Source of the DNA: Burkholderiales bacterium
GTDB taxonomy: Bacteria > Pseudomonadota > Gammaproteobacteria > Burkholderiales > SG8-39
Assembly: GCA_041558415.1 (NCBI GenBank)
Contig: JBFFEY010000011.1
Location: 3,927 to 67,926 of the forward strand
Length of the DNA stretch: 64,000 bases
Direction of reading: 5' to 3'
Part shown: piece by piece, positions 1,377 to 60,358 of the stretch
Numbering within the stretch: the stretch's first letter is position 1
How the letters are laid out: each line of letters starts with the position of its first letter
The notes under the pieces: model-generated
Databases searched by the model: none
The model's input: the letters and a program-made list of their open reading frames with translations, nothing else
What the model was told of the DNA's origin: nothing
Translations under genes and position numbers: made by a program

Positions 1377-1407
1377 CAAAAAAACCCGGCTGCGGCGACC
1401 GGGTTTT
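1377..1407 (-). terminator. Intrinsic terminator in metZ leader (riboswitch expression platform)
   Basis: Minus strand AAAACCCGG-TCGCCGCAG-CCGGGTTTT followed by further Ts, between aptamer and metZ start. Confidence 0.8.
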
Positions 1408-1414
1408 CTCGGCA

Positions 1415-1464
1415 CGCTTTAGCAGCATTTTTTACGCGCCCGCAAGCTGTGTTCAAATCGGCGC
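1415..1464 (-). ncRNA. SAM-II riboswitch aptamer
   Basis: Minus strand GCGCC-GATTT-GAACACAG-CTTGC-GGGCGC-GTAAAAAAT-GCTG-CTAAAG. P1 is GCGCC/GGCGC, the pseudoknot is CAGC/GCTG, and the conserved GAUUU, UUGC, AAAU and CUAAA segments are present. Lies upstream of a Met-biosynthesis gene. Confidence 0.85.
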
Positions 1465-1471
1465 AGCGCAC

Positions 1472-1500
1472 ATTGTAGCGGCAGTGCGCCGCGGCGCCAA
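1472..1500 (-). promoter_or_regulatory. Putative sigma70 promoter for metZ leader
   Basis: TTGGCG (1500-1495), N17, TACAAT (1477-1472), positioned to start transcription just before the aptamer. Confidence 0.6.
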
Positions 1501-52107: not shown

Positions 52108-52881
52108 TCAGGCCGCAGCCTGCCAGGCGATCCAGGCGCCCCAGGCGACGAGCAGCACGCCGCCCGCCTTGCCCAGACGCCCGCCCGCCGGCACGACCTT
52201 CTCGATGAGCACGAACAGCGCCAGCGCCGCGACCCAGAGCAGGTTCATCACGCCGCCGACGAACAGCAGCGCCATGAGCGCCCAGCAGCAGCCGGTGCAG
52301 AAGGCGCCGTGGCGCAGCCCCATCACCAGCGCGCCGCGCGCGCCGTCGCGCCACTCGGTCATGATGAAGCCGATCGGGCTGCGGCACTTGTCGAGGCAGA
52401 CGTCCTTGAGCGGCGCGAACTGGAACAGGCCCGCGCCGACGAGCAGCGCCGCGCCGAGCCAGGGCGCGGCCTTGCCAATCATCGGCGAGACGAGCGCGGC
52501 ACGCTCGAGCCCGTACTGCGCGCTGGTCGCGAGCAGGCTGAAGGCGGCCCAGACCAGCAGGTAGCCAGCGATGAATACGCCCGTCGACACCATGCTGCCG
52601 CCCTGTGCCTGCCGACGACGCTGGATCGCCGCAAACGTCAGGATCATCGGCGCGGCCGACGGCAGCATCATCGCCACCATCATGACGAACCACATGACGA
52701 CCATGAAGGCGAACATCCCCGCGCTCCACGCCTGCAGCTGCGGCATCGCCATGCCACCGCCCGACATGTCTATGCTGCGCGCGAGGTAAGCCGTATAGCC
52801 CCAGGCAAGCAGCACGATGAGAACGAGAGCTGCGCCGACCGTCAGGCGGTCGCGCTTGAGCAGGGCTTCGACGTGCGTCAT
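52108..52881 (-). CDS. DUF2182-like predicted metal-binding integral membrane protein
   Basis: MMVAMMLPS, LKDVCLDKCRSP, GAFCTGCCWALM.LLFVGGVMNL.W. Start ATG 52881. Confidence 0.85.
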   Translation of the reverse strand: MTHVEALLKRDRLTVGAALVLIVLLAWGYTAYLARSIDMSGGGMAMPQLQAWSAGMFAFMVVMWFVMMVAMMLPSAAPMILTFAAIQRRRQAQGGSMVSTGVFIAGYLLVWAAFSLLATSAQYGLERAALVSPMIGKAAPWLGAALLVGAGLFQFAPLKDVCLDKCRSPIGFIMTEWRDGARGALVMGLRHGAFCTGCCWALMALLFVGGVMNLLWVAALALFVLIEKVVPAGGRLGKAGGVLLVAWGAWIAWQAAA

Positions 52882-52909: not shown

Positions 52910-53386
52910 CTATTTTTTCGCCTGCGCCTCGAGGAAGTTGACCATGCGCACCACGTCGGTCGCCTCGACGCGGCCAATGGGCCCGGAGCTGTAGGTCGCA
53001 CTCAGAACCTTGCCGCCCTGCCCAATGAGGAACTCCGAGGGCTGGATGACCTGGCGCTTGTCCTCCCACCAGGAACCCAGCTGCTCGGCCTGCGCGCGCG
53101 TCACGCCGTAGCCCACAGGGAAGCTGAGCGCGGCAGCCACTTCCTTCGCCTTGTCGAGCGGATCGACGCTCGCCGCGAAGACTTTGACGCCCGCCGCAGT
53201 GAGCTGCGCCTTCCAGAATTCGAAGCCGGCCAACTGCCGGCGGCAGTACGGTCACCAGTGCCCGCGGTAGAACAGGATGACCTTGTACTTGGCGTCGATT
53301 CCGTCGGGCAGCTCGAGCGTGCTGCCGTCGACCAGGCTTAGCGTCATCTTCGGAAAGACGTCGCCGGTGTTCAGCTTTTGCGCCAT
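52910..53386 (-). CDS. Selenocysteine-containing peroxiredoxin-like (AhpC/TSA, UxxC) protein, 158 aa, Sec45
   Basis: ATG 53386 with SD GGGAGGG. MAQKLNTGDVFP...VILFYRGHW-(TGA 53254-53252)-PYCRRQL continues in frame into the ORF-track fragment 52910-53233. SECIS-like hairpin follows; adjacent to selC. Confidence 0.9.
53225..53254 (-). promoter_or_regulatory. Putative bacterial SECIS element (peroxiredoxin)
   Basis: UGA-CCGUACUGCC-[GCCGGC-AGUUG-GCCGGC]. Confidence 0.7.
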
Positions 53387-53413: not shown

Positions 53414-53509
53414 TGGCGGAAAAGAGTGGGAGTCGAACCCACCAGGGACGTCTGACGCCCCTCACTGGATTTGAAGTCCAGGCGCCCCACCGGGGTGCGA
53501 TTCTCTTCC
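53414..53509 (-). tRNA. selC: tRNA-Sec (anticodon UCA), 96 nt
   Basis: 8-bp acceptor stem GGAAGAGA/UCUUUUCC, discriminator G plus CCA, anticodon arm CUGGA-CUUCAAA-UCCAG, long variable arm AGGGGCG-UCAGA-CGUCCCU, T arm GUGGG-UUCGACU-CCCAC. Confidence 0.97.
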
Positions 53510-55393
53510 GTGCTGGTCGCGCTGCAGCACGTGCGCATCGCCCTTGCGTCGGGTGAATTTTATCCGGTCGAAGAACTCGAGCACCTCGATCGTGAGGTTG
53601 CGCCCGATGCCCGAGCGGTCGCGGAACGCCGCCGCGGTGATCGCGCCGCTGGCGTGCGCCTCCTCTTCCGCGAGTTGTTCGAGACGGCGCAGTGCCGCAG
53701 GCAGGAAGAAGCGCGTTTTCGAAACGCGCACCAGCAAACCCTGACGCTCGAGACGTGACAGCGCGGCCTCGAGTCTGCGCGGATCGGTCGCGAGCGTTGC
53801 GGCCAGCTCGACGACGCTCGGCGCACGCAAGGCGCTCGATGCGAGCAGCGGTTCGACCTTCTGCCACAGCGCGGCATCGGCGGCGCTGAGCTGAATCCGA
53901 TGCTCCGCCAGACGCAGGCCCGCGCCGTCACGCACGACCCTGCCCTCGCTCACCAGCGACTCGATGAGCGTCGTCAGCGCCGCGCGCGGCAGGCGCAGGC
54001 CGCTGCCCTCGAGCAGGCGGGATTCCGGCGGACCGGCGCTGTCCGGCGCCCGGCGGTGCCAGGCGGTGAGCGCTTCGAGCGCCTTGGCGCGCAGCGCATC
54101 CCAGTGCGCCGGTGAAAAACCCCAGTCGCCGGCGCGCTGTACGGGCAAGCGCTCGGCCAGCGCCACGGCGGCGGCTGGCGTCAGGTTGCGATTCATCGCG
54201 AAGCGCGTCAGGTCGACGCCCTCGGCTGCCTGCGCCAGCAACGCCCCGAGCGCCGCGGCGGGATCGTCGAGCACCTGCGCGGCGAGCGCGGCGAGGCGCT
54301 CGGGCCGCGCCCGGCCGCGCGCCGGCGGAAAGACGTCGATCACGCGACCGCCGGCGAGCGTGCGCCGCGCGGACTGGTCGCGCAGGATGAAGCCGTCGCC
54401 GAACAGCGCGCCGAGTGGGCGGTCGAGCACGAGCTGCACCAGGCCCGCGGCGCCCGGCGCGATGCTGTCGCCCTCGAGCAGCGCGACGCGGCCGATGACG
54501 TTGGCGGCGCCGAGGTGGACGTGCACCGGCGTCCAGTGCGCGAGCGGCTTTGCCTCGTCCGCCAGCACGCGCAACCGCGCGTCGAACTTGCGCACCGCCG
54601 CAGGCACGTCGCCGGCGACGATCCAGTCGCCCCGCTCGATCGCCGTCTTATCGCCGAGCCCGGCGAGATTGAGCGCACAACGCTGCCCCGCAACGCCCCG
54701 CTGCGCCGCCGCGTTCTGCGCATGGATCGCGCGCACGCGCGCCGACTGTCCCGCGAGCAGCGCACGCACCGCGTCGCCGACGCGGATTGCGCCGCTCACG
54801 ACCGTGCCGGTCACGACCAGGCCGGCGCCGGCAATGGTGAAGGTGCGGTCGACCGCGAGGCGGAAGTTGCCCTCGTCTGTCCGCGGCCGCAGCGCCTGCG
54901 CCGCCGCTTGCAGATGCGCCTTCAGCGCGGCGACGCCGTGACCGCCGAGGCTCGAGAGCGGAAACACGGGCGCGGCGCGCAGAGCGGTCGGCGCGAGCAG
55001 CGCGGCGAGCAGCGCCTTGACTTCGGCCACGCGCGCGTCGCTCACGCGATCGATCTTGGTGAGCGCCACCGCGCCCTGTGATACCCCCAGCAGGTCGAGG
55101 ATCGCCAGGTGCTCGCGCGTCTGCGGCATCGGCCCGTCGTCGGCGGCGACGACGAGCAGCGCAAAGTCGATGCCCGCGACGCCGGACAGCATGTTGTGCA
55201 CGAAGCGCTCGTGGCCGGGCACGTCGACGAAGCCGATCGTCTGCGCGTCGTCCACGGGGAGGTAAGCGAAGCCGAGGTCGATCGTCAGGCCGCGCTTTTT
55301 CTCCTCCGGCAGGCGATCGGTGTCGACGCCGGTGAGCGCGCGCACCAGGCTGGTCTTGCCGTGGTCGACGTGGCCCGCCGTGGCGACGATCAC
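53462..55393 (-). CDS. selB: Selenocysteine-specific elongation factor
   Basis: [31 protein letters not shown]; C-terminal winged helix [24 protein letters not shown] start overlaps the selA stop; last 16 codons lie inside selC. Confidence 0.97.
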
Positions 55394-56766
55394 GCGCCCT
55401 CCAGCTGCGCGGCGAAGCGCGCTTCGTCGGCCGGCTCCAGGCCGCGCAGGTCGAGAATCAGGGCACCGTCCTGCAGGCGGCCGATGACCGGAACCGGCAG
55501 CGCGCGAAACGCGGTGGCAAGGCGCGTCGTGCCCGGGCGCAGCGCGAGCCCCGCGCTCGCGAGGTGCTGGCGCGGCGCCGCCCCGCTGCCGACCTCGCTC
55601 TCGCAGTCGATCACGCTCACCTCGACGCCCGGCTTGGCCCAGGCGGCCAGCCGCGGGCGCAGGCGATCGGCCATCGTGCGGAGGTCCGCCACCGATCGCG
55701 CCAGGCGACGCAGCACGGGCAGGCGCGTCGCCACGCGCTCGGGATCCTGGTAGAGCCGCAACACCGCGGCGAGCGCCGCCACGGTGAGCTTGTCGACGCG
55801 CAGCGCGCGCTTCAGCGGGTTGCGCCGCAGCCGGGCGACGAGATCCGCGCGCCCGACGATGATCCCCGCCTGCGGGCCGCCGAGCAGCTTGTCGCCGCTG
55901 AAGCTAACCAGGTCGGCGCCCTGCGCGATGGCCTGCGCCGGGGTCGGCTCGGCCGGCAGGCCGAAGCGCCGCAGGTCGACCAGCGTGCCGCTGCCGAGAT
56001 CGACCACGAAGGGCACGCCCCGCGCGCGGCACAGCGTGGCGAGGTCGCGCTCGGCGACCGCCGCGGTAAAGCCCTCGATGGCGTAGTTGCTGGCGTGCGC
56101 CTTCAGCACCAGCCCGGTCTTCGATCCGATCGCCTGCGCGAAATCGTCGAGATGCGTGCGGTTGGTCGTGCCGACTTCGCGCAGCCTGCAGCCCGCGCGC
56201 TGCATGAGGTCCGGCAGACGGAACGAGCCGCCGATCTCGATCAGCTCGCCGCGCGAGACCGGCACTTCCTTGCGCTTGGCGAGCGTGTTCAGCATCAGCA
56301 GCACCGCGGCCGCGTTGTTGTTCACCACGGTGGCCGCCGGTGCGCCGGTCAGCGCGCACAGCAGCCGTTCGAGGTGATGGTCGCGCTCGCCGCGCCGGCC
56401 CGTGGCGAGGTCGTACTCCAGATTCGTCGCCTCGCGCGCGGCCTCGCACAGTGCGTCGATCGCCTCCTCGGGCAGCGGCGCGCGACCGAGATTGGTGTGC
56501 AGCAGCGTGCCGGTGAGGTTGAACACCGGGCGCAGCGAGGAACGCGCCTGCTGCGCGAGGCGCTCGGCGACGCGGCCGACGACGGCGTGCGCCACGTCCT
56601 GCGGCAGGGCCGCGCGCGCGCTGCGCAGGTCATCGAGCACGCCGCGGATCGCGTCGGTCACCGCCGCGCGGCCGTAGGCGGCGATCAGCGCGTCGGCTTC
56701 CGGCCGCCGCAGCAAACGGTCGACCGAGGGCAGCGCGGCAAGTGCGGAAGCGCGTGAATCCACCAT
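55390..56766 (-). CDS. selA: L-seryl-tRNA(Sec) selenium transferase
   Basis: [58 protein letters not shown]. Start ATG 56766. Confidence 0.97.
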
Positions 56767-56833: not shown

Positions 56834-57610
56834 ATGCGTGCCGAGACGCCCGTCGATCCCGTCGCCCTGCGCGAGGAGGTCAAGATCAAGTACCGCGAAG
56901 TCGCCTGCAATCCGCAGGGCAAGTACCACTTTCACACCGGCCGGCGCCTGGCGAGGCGCCTGGGCTACGACGACGCGGTCGTCGCGCGCATGCCGGACGA
57001 GGCGGTCGAGTCCTTCGCCGGGGTCGCCAACCCGTTCGCGCTGCGCGCGCTCGCGCCCGGCGAGACCGTCGTCGACGTCGGCTCGGGCGCGGGCTTCGAC
57101 TGCTTCATCGCCGCGCAGCAGGTCGGCGCCGGCGGAAAGGTGGTCGGCGTCGACATGCTCGAGGAAATGCTGCAGAAGGCGCGCGCCAGTGCCGCGCGCA
57201 TGGGTCTGACGAATGTCGAATTCCGCGCGGGCCTGATCGAGGCGATGCCGGTCGAGGACGGCTGGGCCGACGTCGTCATCAGCAACGGCGTCATGAACCT
57301 GTGCGCCGACAAGAAAAAGGCGTTCGCGGAGATCTGGCGCGTGCTCAAGCCCGGCGGGCGGCTGCAGTTCGCCGATATCGCCAACGGCAAGCCCGTGCCG
57401 GAAGCGGCCATCCGCAACATCGATCTCTGGACCGCTTGAATCGCCGGCGGCCTTCCGTGTGAAGGCTGGCGGGCGATGCTGGAGCAGATCGGCTTCGTCG
57501 AGGTGCAGATCGGCGCGCCCTGCGACACCTTCGGCGAGGCCGCCGGCGAGAAGAACGCGCGCAGCTTCGAGGTCTACGGCTACCCGTTCCTCGCGCGCAA
57601 GCCGACGTAA
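56834..57610 (+). CDS. Selenocysteine-containing ArsM-like SAM-dependent methyltransferase, 258 aa, Sec202
   Basis: Motif [29 protein letters not shown]-(TGA 57437-57439)[24 protein letters not shown]...[12 protein letters not shown] continues as a plausible ArsM-type C-terminus. SECIS-like hairpin follows; divergent from selA. Confidence 0.85.
57437..57471 (+). promoter_or_regulatory. Putative bacterial SECIS element (methyltransferase)
   Basis: UGA-AUCGCCGGCG-[GCCUUC-CGUGU-GAAGGC]-UGGCG, with possible lower stem CGCCG/UGGCG. Confidence 0.75.
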
Positions 57611-57687
57611 GCGCCGCGGGCGCCGGGTGCCCGCCGCCAGCGAACCTGAGTCACCCCGGGCGATGGCGCAGGATTTATGATCCGCGC

Positions 57688-58812
57688 GTGTCCAGCCCGG
57701 AATCCAACGCGCCTTCGCATCGTGCCGCGCGGCGCCGCCGCGCGCCGCTCAACCTGGTCGTGCTGGGCCTGGCGATCGTCCTCGCGCTCGGCTTCGGCTA
57801 CCGCGAGTTTCGTCAGCGCCTGCTCTTTCTGCACGAGGAGGATGCGCGCATCCGCGCCGACATGGTGACCGTCGCCAGCCGCGTCGCCGGCTGGGTGACG
57901 CGCGTCGCGGCACAGGAGGGTCAGGCAGTGGCGGCCGGCACGGTGCTGGTCGAGGTCGACCGACGCGATGCCGCGCTCGCGCTGGAGGAGCTCGACGCGC
58001 AGCGCGCCGCGCTGGCGGCCGAGCGTTCGCGCCTGGCCGCCGAGCAGGCGCTGGTGCGCGGCCAGACCGAGAGCCATCTGCAGTCGGCGCGCGCCGAACG
58101 CGAGGCGGCGCGCGTGACCGTCTCCAGCCTCGAGCCGCAGCGCAGCCTGGCGCGCAGCGAGCTGAAGCGCAGCCAGCAGCTGTTCGACAAGAAGATGGCC
58201 TCGCAGAGTGCGCGCGACCAGGCCGAGACGCAGCTGCAGCGCGTCGAGCGCGAGTACCGCATCGCGGCCGCCAACCTGGAGGGCGCGGAGGCGCGCGTGC
58301 GCGAGGCCGAGGCCGAGCGCGCGCGCCTCGATGTGCTGGCCGGCCAGCTTGCGGTGCTCGAGACGCGCGAGGCCGAGATCGCGGCGCGCCTGCAGCGCCA
58401 GCGACTCGACCTCGGCGACCGAATTGTCAAGAGCCCGCTCGACGGCGTGGTCGACCGCAAGTTCGTCGAGGCCGGCGAGTACGTCTCGCCGGGGCAGCGG
58501 CTGATGCTGCTGCACGACCCGTCGAAGGTCTGGGTCGAGGCCAACATCAAGGAGACGGCGTTGCGCCGGCTCGCGGTCGGCCAGACCGTGCGCGTGCGCG
58601 TCGACGCCTATCCGGACGAGACCTTCGAGGGCCGCATCGAGCGCATTGGCCACGCCGCCACCAGCACCTTCGCGCTGCTGCCGAGCCCGAACCCGAGCGG
58701 CAACTTCACCAAGATCACGCAGCGCGTGCCGGTGCGCATCGCGGTCGCGCAGCGCGAGGGCCGGCTGCGCCCGGGCATGATGGTCGAGATCAAGATTGCC
58801 ACCGGCGGTTGA
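57688..58812 (+). CDS. HlyD/EmrA family membrane fusion protein
   Basis: N-terminal TM, VASRVAGWV, coiled coil, VKSPLDGVV, VWVEANIKET, NPSGNFTKITQRVPVRI, LRPGM. Confidence 0.93.
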   Translation: MSSPESNAPSHRAARRRRAPLNLVVLGLAIVLALGFGYREFRQRLLFLHEEDARIRADMVTVASRVAGWVTRVAAQEGQAVAAGTVLVEVDRRDAALALEELDAQRAALAAERSRLAAEQALVRGQTESHLQSARAEREAARVTVSSLEPQRSLARSELKRSQQLFDKKMASQSARDQAETQLQRVEREYRIAAANLEGAEARVREAEAERARLDVLAGQLAVLETREAEIAARLQRQRLDLGDRIVKSPLDGVVDRKFVEAGEYVSPGQRLMLLHDPSKVWVEANIKETALRRLAVGQTVRVRVDAYPDETFEGRIERIGHAATSTFALLPSPNPSGNFTKITQRVPVRIAVAQREGRLRPGMMVEIKIATGG

Positions 58813-60358
58813 CGCGAGCCTCGGTATCGAGGCCCTGTTCCAGCGCTACGGGCCTGCGTACCGCTGGCTGGTGACCGTCGGCGGGCTGCTCGGCGCGATG
58901 TCGATGGTGCTTTCGTCGACGATGATCAACGTCGCGGTGCCGAGCATCATGGGCGCCTTCGGCATCGGCCAGGATCTCGCGCAGTGGGCGGCGACCGCGT
59001 TCCTCGCGACCATGGTGGCAAGCCAGCTGCTAAACGCCTGGGCGGTGGAGGCCTTCGGCCAGCGCATCACGTTCTGCCTCGCCTTGCTGATCTTCGTGCT
59101 CGGCGCGCTGATCGGCGCCAACGCGACCAGCATCGAGACGCTGATCGCGGGGCGCGTGCTGCAGGGCTTTTCCGCGGGCCTGGTGCAGCCGCTGGTGATG
59201 GCGACGGTGGTGGCGGTATTTCCCGCCGAGCGGCGCGGCATGGCCGTGAGCCTTTACTCGGTGGGCGTCACCATGGCGCCGAGCTTCGGTCCCTGGATCG
59301 GCGGCCTGGCGATCGATGCCATGAACTGGCGCCAGATCTTCATGGTGCCGCTGCCGCTGGTGGGGCTGGCTTTCCTGCTCGGGCTGGTGCTCATGCCGTC
59401 GAAGAAGCTCTCGCGCCGGCTGCCGAAGTTCGACTGGAGCGGCTACGCGCTGCTCACGCTCGCGCTGATGTGCGTGATGAGCGTGATCGGCAACGGCCAG
59501 CGCTGGGGGTGGAGCTCCGACCGCAGCGCCACCTTTCTCGTCGTCGGCCTGGCCGCAGCGGCGCTGTTCACCCTGCTCCAACTGCGTTCGAAAAACCCCC
59601 TGCTCGACGTCAGCCTGTTCGCCGACCTGCGCTTCACCGCGGCGATGGGCATCGCTTTTGCCTTCGGCGCGGGCAACTTCGCCACCAACTACGCCATCCC
59701 GGTGTTCATGCAGACCGTACAGGGCTTCACGCCGACCGAGGCCGGCTTCGTACTGGTGCCCGCCGGCATCCTGCTGGTGACGATGATCCCGGGCGTCGGT
59801 CGGCTCGCCGACACGCTGCCTTCGCACCTGCCGATCATGCTCGGTTGCGTGCTGTTCTCGCTCGCCGGCTGGCTGCTGTCCGATACCGACGTCAACACCG
59901 CGTTCTGGACCATGGCCGGCTTCGCCATCGTCAGCCGCATCGCGCTCGGCCTGGTGATGCCGAACCTCGGCAAGGTGGCGATGAGCACGGTGCCGGCCGG
60001 CAAGCTGAACCAGGGCGCCGGCACCTACAACTTCATCCGCCAGATGGGCGGCGCCTTCGGCGTCGCCCTGACGGCGGTCGCGATCGAGCTGCGCACCGCG
60101 CGCCACGCCGACCTGCTGACCGCGACACAAACGCCGGCCAACGTGCAGACCCGCGAACTGCTCGATCGCGTCGCCGAGCTGCTCGCCCGCGGCGGGCTGC
60201 CGGAATCGCTGCTGCAGCCCGGCGCGCTCGACTACCTCGGCCGCGTACTCTACGCGCAAGCGCTCGGCCTCGGCTTCCAGGACGCGTACTTCTTCATCTG
60301 CTTCGCCTTCGCGCTCGCCCTCGTGCCGGCCTGGTTCCTCGGGCGGGCGGGGCGCTAG
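58796..60358 (+). CDS. DHA2/EmrB family MFS efflux transporter
   Basis: STMINVAVPSI, GRVLQG, RG.A, PSFGP.IGG, W..IF; about 14 TMs; overlaps the end of the fusion-protein gene. Confidence 0.93.
   Translation: MPPAVDASLGIEALFQRYGPAYRWLVTVGGLLGAMSMVLSSTMINVAVPSIMGAFGIGQDLAQWAATAFLATMVASQLLNAWAVEAFGQRITFCLALLIFVLGALIGANATSIETLIAGRVLQGFSAGLVQPLVMATVVAVFPAERRGMAVSLYSVGVTMAPSFGPWIGGLAIDAMNWRQIFMVPLPLVGLAFLLGLVLMPSKKLSRRLPKFDWSGYALLTLALMCVMSVIGNGQRWGWSSDRSATFLVVGLAAAALFTLLQLRSKNPLLDVSLFADLRFTAAMGIAFAFGAGNFATNYAIPVFMQTVQGFTPTEAGFVLVPAGILLVTMIPGVGRLADTLPSHLPIMLGCVLFSLAGWLLSDTDVNTAFWTMAGFAIVSRIALGLVMPNLGKVAMSTVPAGKLNQGAGTYNFIRQMGGAFGVALTAVAIELRTARHADLLTATQTPANVQTRELLDRVAELLARGGLPESLLQPGALDYLGRVLYAQALGLGFQDAYFFICFAFALALVPAWFLGRAGR

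Follow-up and report, generated by a model that had tools for sequence, protein, structure and literature searches.

We analysed a stretch of 64,000 nucleotides (nt; hereafter the window) from a Burkholderiales bacterium (assembly GCA_041558415.1, contig JBFFEY010000011.1, positions 3,927 to 67,926 of the forward strand). Our subject is a gene at positions 56834-57610 of the window, which encodes an ArsM-like S-adenosylmethionine (SAM) methyltransferase and contains an in-frame TGA that is very probably read as selenocysteine (Sec). The locus proper consists of three features (positions are those of the window):

56834-57610, plus strand: coding sequence of the predicted Sec-containing ArsM-like SAM methyltransferase (ATG at 56834, Sec codon 202, TAA at 57608-57610; 258 residues)
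57437-57439, plus strand: in-frame TGA, the predicted Sec codon 202 in the motif U-I-A-G, opposite Cys224 of CmArsM (assigned on the basis of the alignment, the orthologues, the homologues with Cys and the metagenomes)
57440-57477, plus strand: candidate SECIS-type (selenocysteine insertion sequence) hairpin, with apical stem GCCUUC (57450-57455) / GAAGGC (57461-57466) and loop CGUGU (57456-57460)

With TGA taken as a stop, the gene is a short open reading frame (56834-57439, plus strand) of 201 codons that ends in ...IDLWTA-TGA. The first-pass annotation, made from the letters alone, had described a continuation of the same frame over 56 codons, and this continuation indeed runs to the TAA at 57608-57610, with the downstream peptide exactly as quoted there. 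Since the GC content of the genome is 68.5%, 56 open codons past a TGA are weak evidence when taken alone. The codon itself is secure: the 1-kb stretch around the gene was found near-identical in about 20 sediment, soil, freshwater and marine metagenome assemblies (12 studies), and the region 57300-57620 was covered by contigs of four metagenomes, each from a different study, with 0-2 differences and none at 57437-57439. The TGA is thus unchanged in four independent metagenomes and therefore does not stem from an assembly error.

Orthologues provided the strongest evidence for read-through. A scan with one genome per species yielded 76 related loci, 68 of which were analysed together with three loci from genome searches (71 in total, all from different species). 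Codon 202 is TGA in 69 of these 71 loci and TGC in the other two (L115 and L116), and the carriers are spread over the Beta-, Alpha- and Gammaproteobacteria, Binatia, Actinomycetota, Gemmatimonadota and Thermodesulfobacteriota. A cultured species, Desertibaculum subflavum SYSU D60015, is among those with a TGA-form orthologue (L097). More distant homologues in the protein database (255-277 residues, 62-66% identity, e.g. P0021, P0025, P0027 and P0032) have Cys at position 202 and are full length, so that the interchange of Cys and TGA at residue 202, for which the first-pass annotation had proposed to look, is present both among the orthologues and beyond them. A maximum-likelihood tree groups the Sec forms in a single clade, with two Cys202 clades as its sisters. 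The mean column entropy at the three codon positions, calculated over 68 TGA-form sequences, was 0.46/0.33/1.21 bits over the 54 codons that precede the TGA and 0.50/0.44/1.20 bits over those that follow, and the likeness of the pattern on both sides of the TGA implies that the 56 downstream codons evolve as coding sequence.

An obvious alternative is that translation does end at the TGA, which would leave a 201-residue truncated methyltransferase or a pseudogene with a downstream frame that is open by chance. Public gene callers all end the protein at 201 residues, and long open frames are common at this GC content. Accordingly, well over 80 proteins in the database are exactly 201 residues long (78-92% identity), with the same truncation point, as was to be expected from standard annotation of such a gene. 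Nevertheless, we give this alternative a negligible chance: the exact TGA codon is kept in 69 species of several phyla together with a conserved downstream peptide, coding-type substitutions persist past it, the homologues with Cys are full length, and a product of 201 residues would miss the final strands and helices of the predicted fold. The conserved hairpin 3' of the TGA and the adjoining Sec machinery, both described below, also argue against a stop.

Directly downstream of the TGA we found a hairpin with the geometry of UGA + 10 nt + a 6-bp apical stem + a 5-nt loop whose second and third positions are GU; the apical loop (CGUGY among the orthologues) lies 19 nt past the U of the UGA. 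The fold energy of the 38 nt after the UGA is -30.9 kcal/mol. In an alignment of 65 distinct sequences, pairing was retained in 90.3% of the cells, compared to 30-54% when the 3' partners were slid by 1-3 columns. Compensatory changes were observed for one apical pair (U-A to G-C in 23 of the 65 sequences) and for one basal pair (C-G to U-A in 16 of the 65, via two synonymous third positions). Moreover, five actinomycete-like loci (L104-L106, L108 and L114) retain a CGUGC loop even though its register relative to the codons differs, an indication that the RNA itself is under selection.

The genes for Sec synthesis and decoding were found immediately next to the methyltransferase gene, together with the gene of a second putative selenoprotein, a peroxiredoxin (Prx)/AhpC-like protein:

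55390-56766, minus strand: selA, encoding L-seryl-tRNA(Sec) selenium transferase (TIGR00474, 581 bits, cut-off 268)
53462-55393, minus strand: selB, encoding the Sec-specific elongation factor (TIGR00475, 455 bits, cut-off 242)
53414-53509, minus strand: selC, the tRNA-Sec with anticodon UCA (ARAGORN; Rfam RF01852, 75.4 bits, gathering score 47)
52910-53386, minus strand: Prx/AhpC-like second putative selenoprotein gene with the motif U45-x-x-C and its TGA at 53252-53254 (from the sequence and its translation)

The selA gene is divergent from the methyltransferase gene and the two start codons are separated by 67 nt. As selD was identified on a separate contig (C33, 435 bits), the genome contains all of selA, selB, selC and selD. 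In three of the four other TGA-form genomes that we checked, selA was likewise accompanied by a strong tRNA-Sec. The selB frame as listed overlaps the tRNA-Sec by 48 nt (53462-53509, minus strand), so that the TGA stop of selB lies inside the tRNA.

The presence of this system bears on a further alternative, namely that UGA is decoded as Trp or Cys (by a near-cognate tRNA or through an alternative code) and not as Sec. Two database entries with W at position 202 could be cited in its favour, and we rejected the resulting equation of UGA with Trp after inspection of both: the W of P0003 is a TGA that the gene caller translated with code 4, and the homologue P0013 of Blastococcus has a real TGG, which is a single derived case nested within the Sec clade. 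TGA is furthermore an ordinary stop elsewhere in the genome (selB ends in TGA), and the genome has a complete Sec system with selA, selB and the tRNA-Sec beside the gene. Decoding as Trp or Cys thus appears very improbable. P0013 itself (Blastococcus deserti, L129:6001-6783) stands within the Sec clade, has neither Cys194 nor Cys209, and apparently underwent a one-base change from Sec to Trp.

A few observations weigh against Sec decoding. The fold energy of the hairpin is just moderately better than that of shuffled sequences (z -2.35) and, because the hairpin lies within coding sequence, its conservation is partly driven by the protein. No match to an Rfam SECIS family was obtained, either in the whole window at the gathering threshold or in 57380-57540 at E<=10. 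Rfam covers bacterial SECIS elements poorly, and we therefore did not weigh this blank against the hairpin itself. Finally, in one TGA-form genome, the fragmented assembly G055 (270 contigs), neither selA nor a tRNA-Sec above the gathering score was found. The same assembly carries two TGA-form ArsM-like genes (loci L009 and L030). Taken together, the comparative evidence, the hairpin and the adjoining Sec machinery agree with the original proposal of a selenoprotein with Sec at the Cys224-equivalent position, and we consider it highly likely that UGA-202 is read as Sec and that the gene is intact. Its proposed decoding would follow the bacterial scheme, in which the hairpin that starts 3 nt past the UGA (apical 6-bp stem at 10 nt, GU-bearing 5-nt loop) would recruit SelB and Sec-tRNA(Sec), which would then read UGA-202 as Sec.

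The second putative selenoprotein is a protein of 158 residues with the motif FYRGHWUPYC (UxxC) and a weak match to thiol peroxidase; its gene starts 27 nt downstream of the tRNA-Sec. Its TGA is followed by a hairpin (UGA + 10 nt + GCCGGC/AGUUG/GCCGGC) whose geometry is identical to that of the methyltransferase hairpin, and the C-terminal part of the protein is conserved beside selAB in six related loci. A genome-wide scan for in-frame TGA codons recovered the methyltransferase gene and one candidate with a UGSC motif. The scan was noisy, the Prx-like gene being missing from the top 60, and its outcome is thus not a complete selenoproteome; with that limit, the genome yielded no Sec-containing formate dehydrogenase. 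The UGSC candidate (contig C39, minus strand, reverse-strand offset 2600) has an in-frame TGA in the context ...AGVGD-U-GSC... and resembles a known selenoprotein family that contains UGSC; it would be the third selenoprotein of this genome.

With respect to fold, residues 75-192 matched the class I SAM methyltransferase families Methyltransf_31/25/11 of Pfam (E 1e-32 for Methyltransf_31), and arsenite methyltransferases ranked first in a phmmer search of the PDB sequences (CmArsM, 4fr0/4kw7, E 1e-26). The AlphaFold2 model, built from a 43-sequence alignment, had a mean predicted local distance difference test (pLDDT) score of 94.5 and a predicted template modelling (pTM) score of 0.92. Its best 13 PDB matches were all ArsM or AS3MT (TM-score on the query 0.61-0.70, 25-35% identity). 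Comparison with the curated family models of NCBIfam, which had been suggested at the outset, gave clear homology and no score above a cut-off. The protein obtained 231.4 bits (E 1.3e-68) with NF008823 (PRK11873 arsM, arsenite methyltransferase; cut-off 263), and 230, 205 and 212 bits with the three ArsM-type selenoprotein exception models NF041537, NF041536 and NF047649 (cut-offs 510, 575 and 460). The matches to the exception models were confined to their N-terminal ~225 positions; the gene studied here has a single TGA and no fused domain. Judged from these scores, the clade falls below the cut-off of every curated NCBIfam model, even though it clearly belongs to the ArsM superfamily.

Sec-containing methyltransferases of this type have been described before, as the first-pass annotation had cautioned, and both the literature and the three exception models attest to this. 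As cited in later work (PMC4211708, PMC9312934), Fomenko et al. (2007) used a Sec-containing arsenic methyltransferase homologue to identify the catalytic cysteines of mouse AS3MT. The 'arsenite S-adenosylmethyltransferase' selenoprotein family is listed for prokaryotes as well as eukaryotes (PMC2398784), a count over bacterial genomes found it in 39 of them (PMC5029168), and it appears with the Sec motif UxxG in Table 1 of a 2026 inventory (PMC13188914). The protein described here shows the two properties by which the survey defines the family, i.e. homology to the PRK11873-type domain and a Sec in UxxG (here U-I-A-G). Our best explanation, to which we assign a probability of about 0.9 as a whole, is therefore that the gene belongs to this catalogued selenoprotein family and represents a clade that is missed by current annotation models. 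Three features of the clade may have received too little attention: no curated model covers it, the remaining arsenic ligands are missing, and its linkage to the Sec machinery recurs.

The absence of those ligands became clear from the alignment to CmArsM (4fr0/4kw7). Cys72 corresponds to Val64 (FAGVANP), Cys174 to Gly152 (SNGVMNL) and Cys224 to the TGA codon 202, whereas canonical ArsM sequences of the same order read GLGCGNP, SNCVINL and LYTGCMAGA in these columns. The product has cysteines at positions 25, 90, 157 (NLC), 209 (U-x6-C) and 230 (APCD). The original description of these residues was correct in that the first two canonical cysteines are absent, that the third coincides with the TGA and in the extra cysteines that it listed, but it omitted Cys90. 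Two of these cysteines, C157 (67/71) and C209 (65/71), are conserved in the Sec clade, in contrast to C25 and C230; six members lack C209, of which five have Arg (the actinomycete-like L104-L106, L108 and L114) and one has Leu. Among the Cys-type relatives most carry Cys194 and some lack C157.

The first-pass annotation had proposed a rewired active-site chemistry in view of the missing canonical cysteines. Their absence was confirmed, but Val64 and Gly152 are not unique to this gene: both are nearly invariant across a large superclade of ArsM-like enzymes that have Sec or Cys at position 202. Its members include the Cys-type sisters, a second Sec clade (L012 and L030, 44-45% identity), a Cys194/Cys202 clade (L013-L018) and a paralogue that carries a fused MerT membrane domain. 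Position 202 is the sole cysteine-type residue that is conserved throughout the superclade (Sec or Cys in 42 of the 43 aligned sequences, the exception being the Trp of P0013).

We propose that Sec202 would sit where ArsM has its metalloid-binding Cys224, facing the methyl group of SAM, and would most likely hold a soft nucleophilic substrate by a Se-X bond while this substrate attacks the methyl group. The second ligand or resolving thiol would most likely be one of Cys209, Cys157 and Cys194. In the predicted structure Cys209 is located at the N-terminus of helix 209-219 and Cys157 in the loop after strand 4; Cys194 belongs to the Cys-type relatives. Alternatively, Sec202 could have a redox or regulatory role (for instance in a selenenylsulfide switch with Cys209), or itself be the acceptor of the methyl group, and not be a catalytic residue that binds the substrate. 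The U-x6-C arrangement, in which Cys209 stands at the N-terminus of a helix, is reminiscent of redox pairs, and the second cysteine is found at 194, 209 or 157, a variability that is typical of resolving cysteines. We consider this quite improbable, because the site is that of the substrate-binding Cys of ArsM and holds the only cysteine-type residue conserved across the superclade, and because some Sec forms have a Cys at neither 209 nor 194.

Next to the Sec machinery, the window contains the following genes near the methyltransferase gene:

52108-52881, minus strand: PpoB2/DUF2182 'copper chaperone' family membrane protein (Pfam PF09948, 235 bits), directly downstream of the Prx-like gene
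57688-58812: HlyD/EmrA-like protein, downstream of the methyltransferase gene
58796-60358: major facilitator superfamily (MFS) transporter, downstream of the methyltransferase gene

The order in the window is thus PpoB2/DUF2182, the Prx-like UxxC selenoprotein, tRNA-Sec, selB, selA, the divergent methyltransferase gene, HlyD/EmrA-like and MFS. To find associations that recur, genes within 5 kb were clustered in 72 loci, many of which are short. The recurrent neighbours were:

17 of 72 loci: selA and/or selB, in four or more arrangements (upstream and divergent; downstream and convergent; upstream on the same strand; and, in an actinomycete, selA directly downstream)
11 of 72 loci: ArsR-type regulator fused to rhodanese, mostly divergent and immediately upstream
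10 of 72 loci: DsrE-like protein, immediately upstream on the same strand
7 of 72 loci: ArsM-like::MerT fusion paralogue, mostly upstream on the same strand

None of arsC, acr3, arsB and arsH was found among the 25 most frequent neighbour clusters of these loci. The fusion paralogue (L068, L069, L071, L059, L009/L037 and L084) has a C-terminal domain of the MerT-type mercuric-ion transporter (NF010314, 86 bits) and is often accompanied by an extracytoplasmic function (ECF) sigma factor and a DsrE-like gene. The Trp-form locus of Blastococcus (L129) contains an operon of ArsR-rhodanese, methyltransferase, a metallo-beta-lactamase-fold-rhodanese protein and an MFS transporter, of which the last two lie downstream of the methyltransferase gene. 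We also evaluated the EmrA/HlyD and MFS genes of the window (57688-60358) as conserved exporter partners of a methylated product and rejected them, since they were absent from three other contexts inspected and are not recurrent. Elsewhere in the window, Rfam gave a match to SAM_alpha, the alphaproteobacterial SAM riboswitch, at 1398-1474 (minus strand; 37.2 bits, gathering score 36), in a genome whose nearest relatives in our comparison are Burkholderiales/Betaproteobacteria.

What the enzyme methylates can be narrowed down on chemical grounds. The methyl group of SAM is electrophilic, and the acceptor must therefore be nucleophilic, for example As(III), Sb(III), or a species of sulfur, selenium or tellurium. 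Hg(II) is a chemically unlikely substrate, despite the MerT-fused paralogue. In our estimate a chalcogen is somewhat favoured over arsenite, with sulfane sulfur, selenide or perselenide, and tellurium species as the candidates, because two of the three arsenic ligands are absent, an ars context is lacking, and the neighbours that recur (rhodanese, DsrE) belong to sulfur/selenium trafficking. We hold to this assignment tentatively, at somewhat under even odds. In this light, the suggestion of the first-pass annotation that the substrate may not be arsenite seems reasonable.

The main competitor is that the enzyme is a true arsenite/antimonite methyltransferase that binds As(III) on relocated ligands (Sec202, Cys157 and Cys209) and methylates it as ArsM does. 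Its closest relatives in sequence and in fold are all ArsM/AS3MT, the Sec stands at the arsenic-binding Cys224 position, the conservation of C157 (67/71) and C209 (65/71) makes three chalcogen ligands available, and the literature files such proteins as 'arsenite methyltransferase' (PMC13188914). Against this stand the replacement, by Val64 and Gly152, of ligands on which catalysis by CmArsM and hAS3MT depends (PMC4211708), a score below the PRK11873 cut-off (231 vs 263), the lack of C209 in six members of the Sec clade and of C157 in some Cys-type relatives, and the absence of arsC, acr3, arsB and arsH from the recurrent neighbours of the 72 loci. On balance we consider arsenite or antimonite an unlikely substrate. 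The probability that is left goes to substrates other than chalcogens, arsenite and antimonite.

Several points count against the preferred chalcogen assignment. As(III) could be bound at another three-ligand site, made up of U202, C157 and C209. The neighbourhood is not uniform, as 30 of the 72 loci have none of the recurrent neighbours listed above and many are too short to judge; for these reasons the context is suggestive only. The EmrA/MFS pair of the window does not occur in the recurrent clusters, and the MFS genes near the methyltransferase gene in seven other loci belong to a different family.

A more far-reaching proposal, which as a whole is rather unlikely, is that the Val64/Gly152 superclade, and the Sec clade especially, is a distinct family of chalcogen methyltransferases and comprises no arsenite methyltransferases. 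Such enzymes would accept a sulfane-sulfur, Se or Te atom from carriers of the rhodanese/DsrE type, hold it as a Se-S or Se-Se adduct on Sec202, methylate it with SAM and release the product with the help of a resolving cysteine (C209, C194 or C157). As selA/selB are linked to the gene repeatedly, in different arrangements and across phyla, the enzyme might largely explain why the Sec trait persists in many Burkholderiales, Rhodospirillales, Binatia and actinomycetes of soils and sediments.

In public databases the gene and hundreds of its orthologues appear as fragments of 201 residues, from which the catalytic residue and the final quarter of the fold are missing. No NCBI selenoprotein model rescues the clade, and a dedicated clade model would therefore fix a systematic error. 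Metagenomic surveys that use 'arsM' as a marker for arsenic methylation probably count this superclade, even though two of the three arsenic ligands are missing from it. If its members indeed methylate S, Se or Te instead, such surveys overestimate arsenic methylation and miss a route to volatile chalcogen compounds. In addition, the placement of the Sec machinery between two predicted selenoprotein genes, in a genome in which no Sec-containing formate dehydrogenase was found, provides a compact example of a Sec trait that would be kept for other selenoproteins.

The relation to known systems can be summarised as follows. MddH, MddM1 and MddM2 (H2S/methanethiol S-methyltransferases; PMC11445057, PMC12904073) are, like the enzyme studied here, small cytosolic SAM enzymes, and they act on small chalcogen nucleophiles, the kind of reaction that we favour for it. 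The resemblance is a functional analogy only, and we rejected them as characterised relatives, because they belong to other families of the UbiE/UbiG type (~200-210 aa) that are neither ArsM-like nor selenoproteins. With ArsM/AS3MT (CmArsM 4fr0/6cx6, CrArsM 5evj and human AS3MT 8xt7) the protein shares the class I SAM-binding fold and the arsenic-binding subdomain; the SAM motifs are conserved, as is the third metalloid-binding position, in the form of the predicted Sec. It differs from them in the lack of the ~100-residue C-terminal domain (258 vs 327-377 or more residues) and of an ars-operon context. NF041537 (ArsM/AhpD, UU), NF041536 (ArsM/DUF2284, UU) and NF047649 (methyltransferase/UXPK-star) are homologous over the N-terminal ~225 residues and have UxxG at the same position (PMC13188914, Table 1), but these proteins are fusions with a second domain and contain two or three Sec residues, whereas the protein studied here is unfused and has one. 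The closest correspondence is with the arsenite S-adenosylmethyltransferase selenoprotein family, which has the same domain, the same UxxG Sec motif, a single Sec and the character of a stand-alone enzyme. In the protein studied here, the predicted Sec aligns with Cys206/207 of AS3MT and Cys224 of CmArsM. Compared to the family model, the clade described here stands apart in that it scores below the NF008823 cut-off and often adjoins selA/selB.

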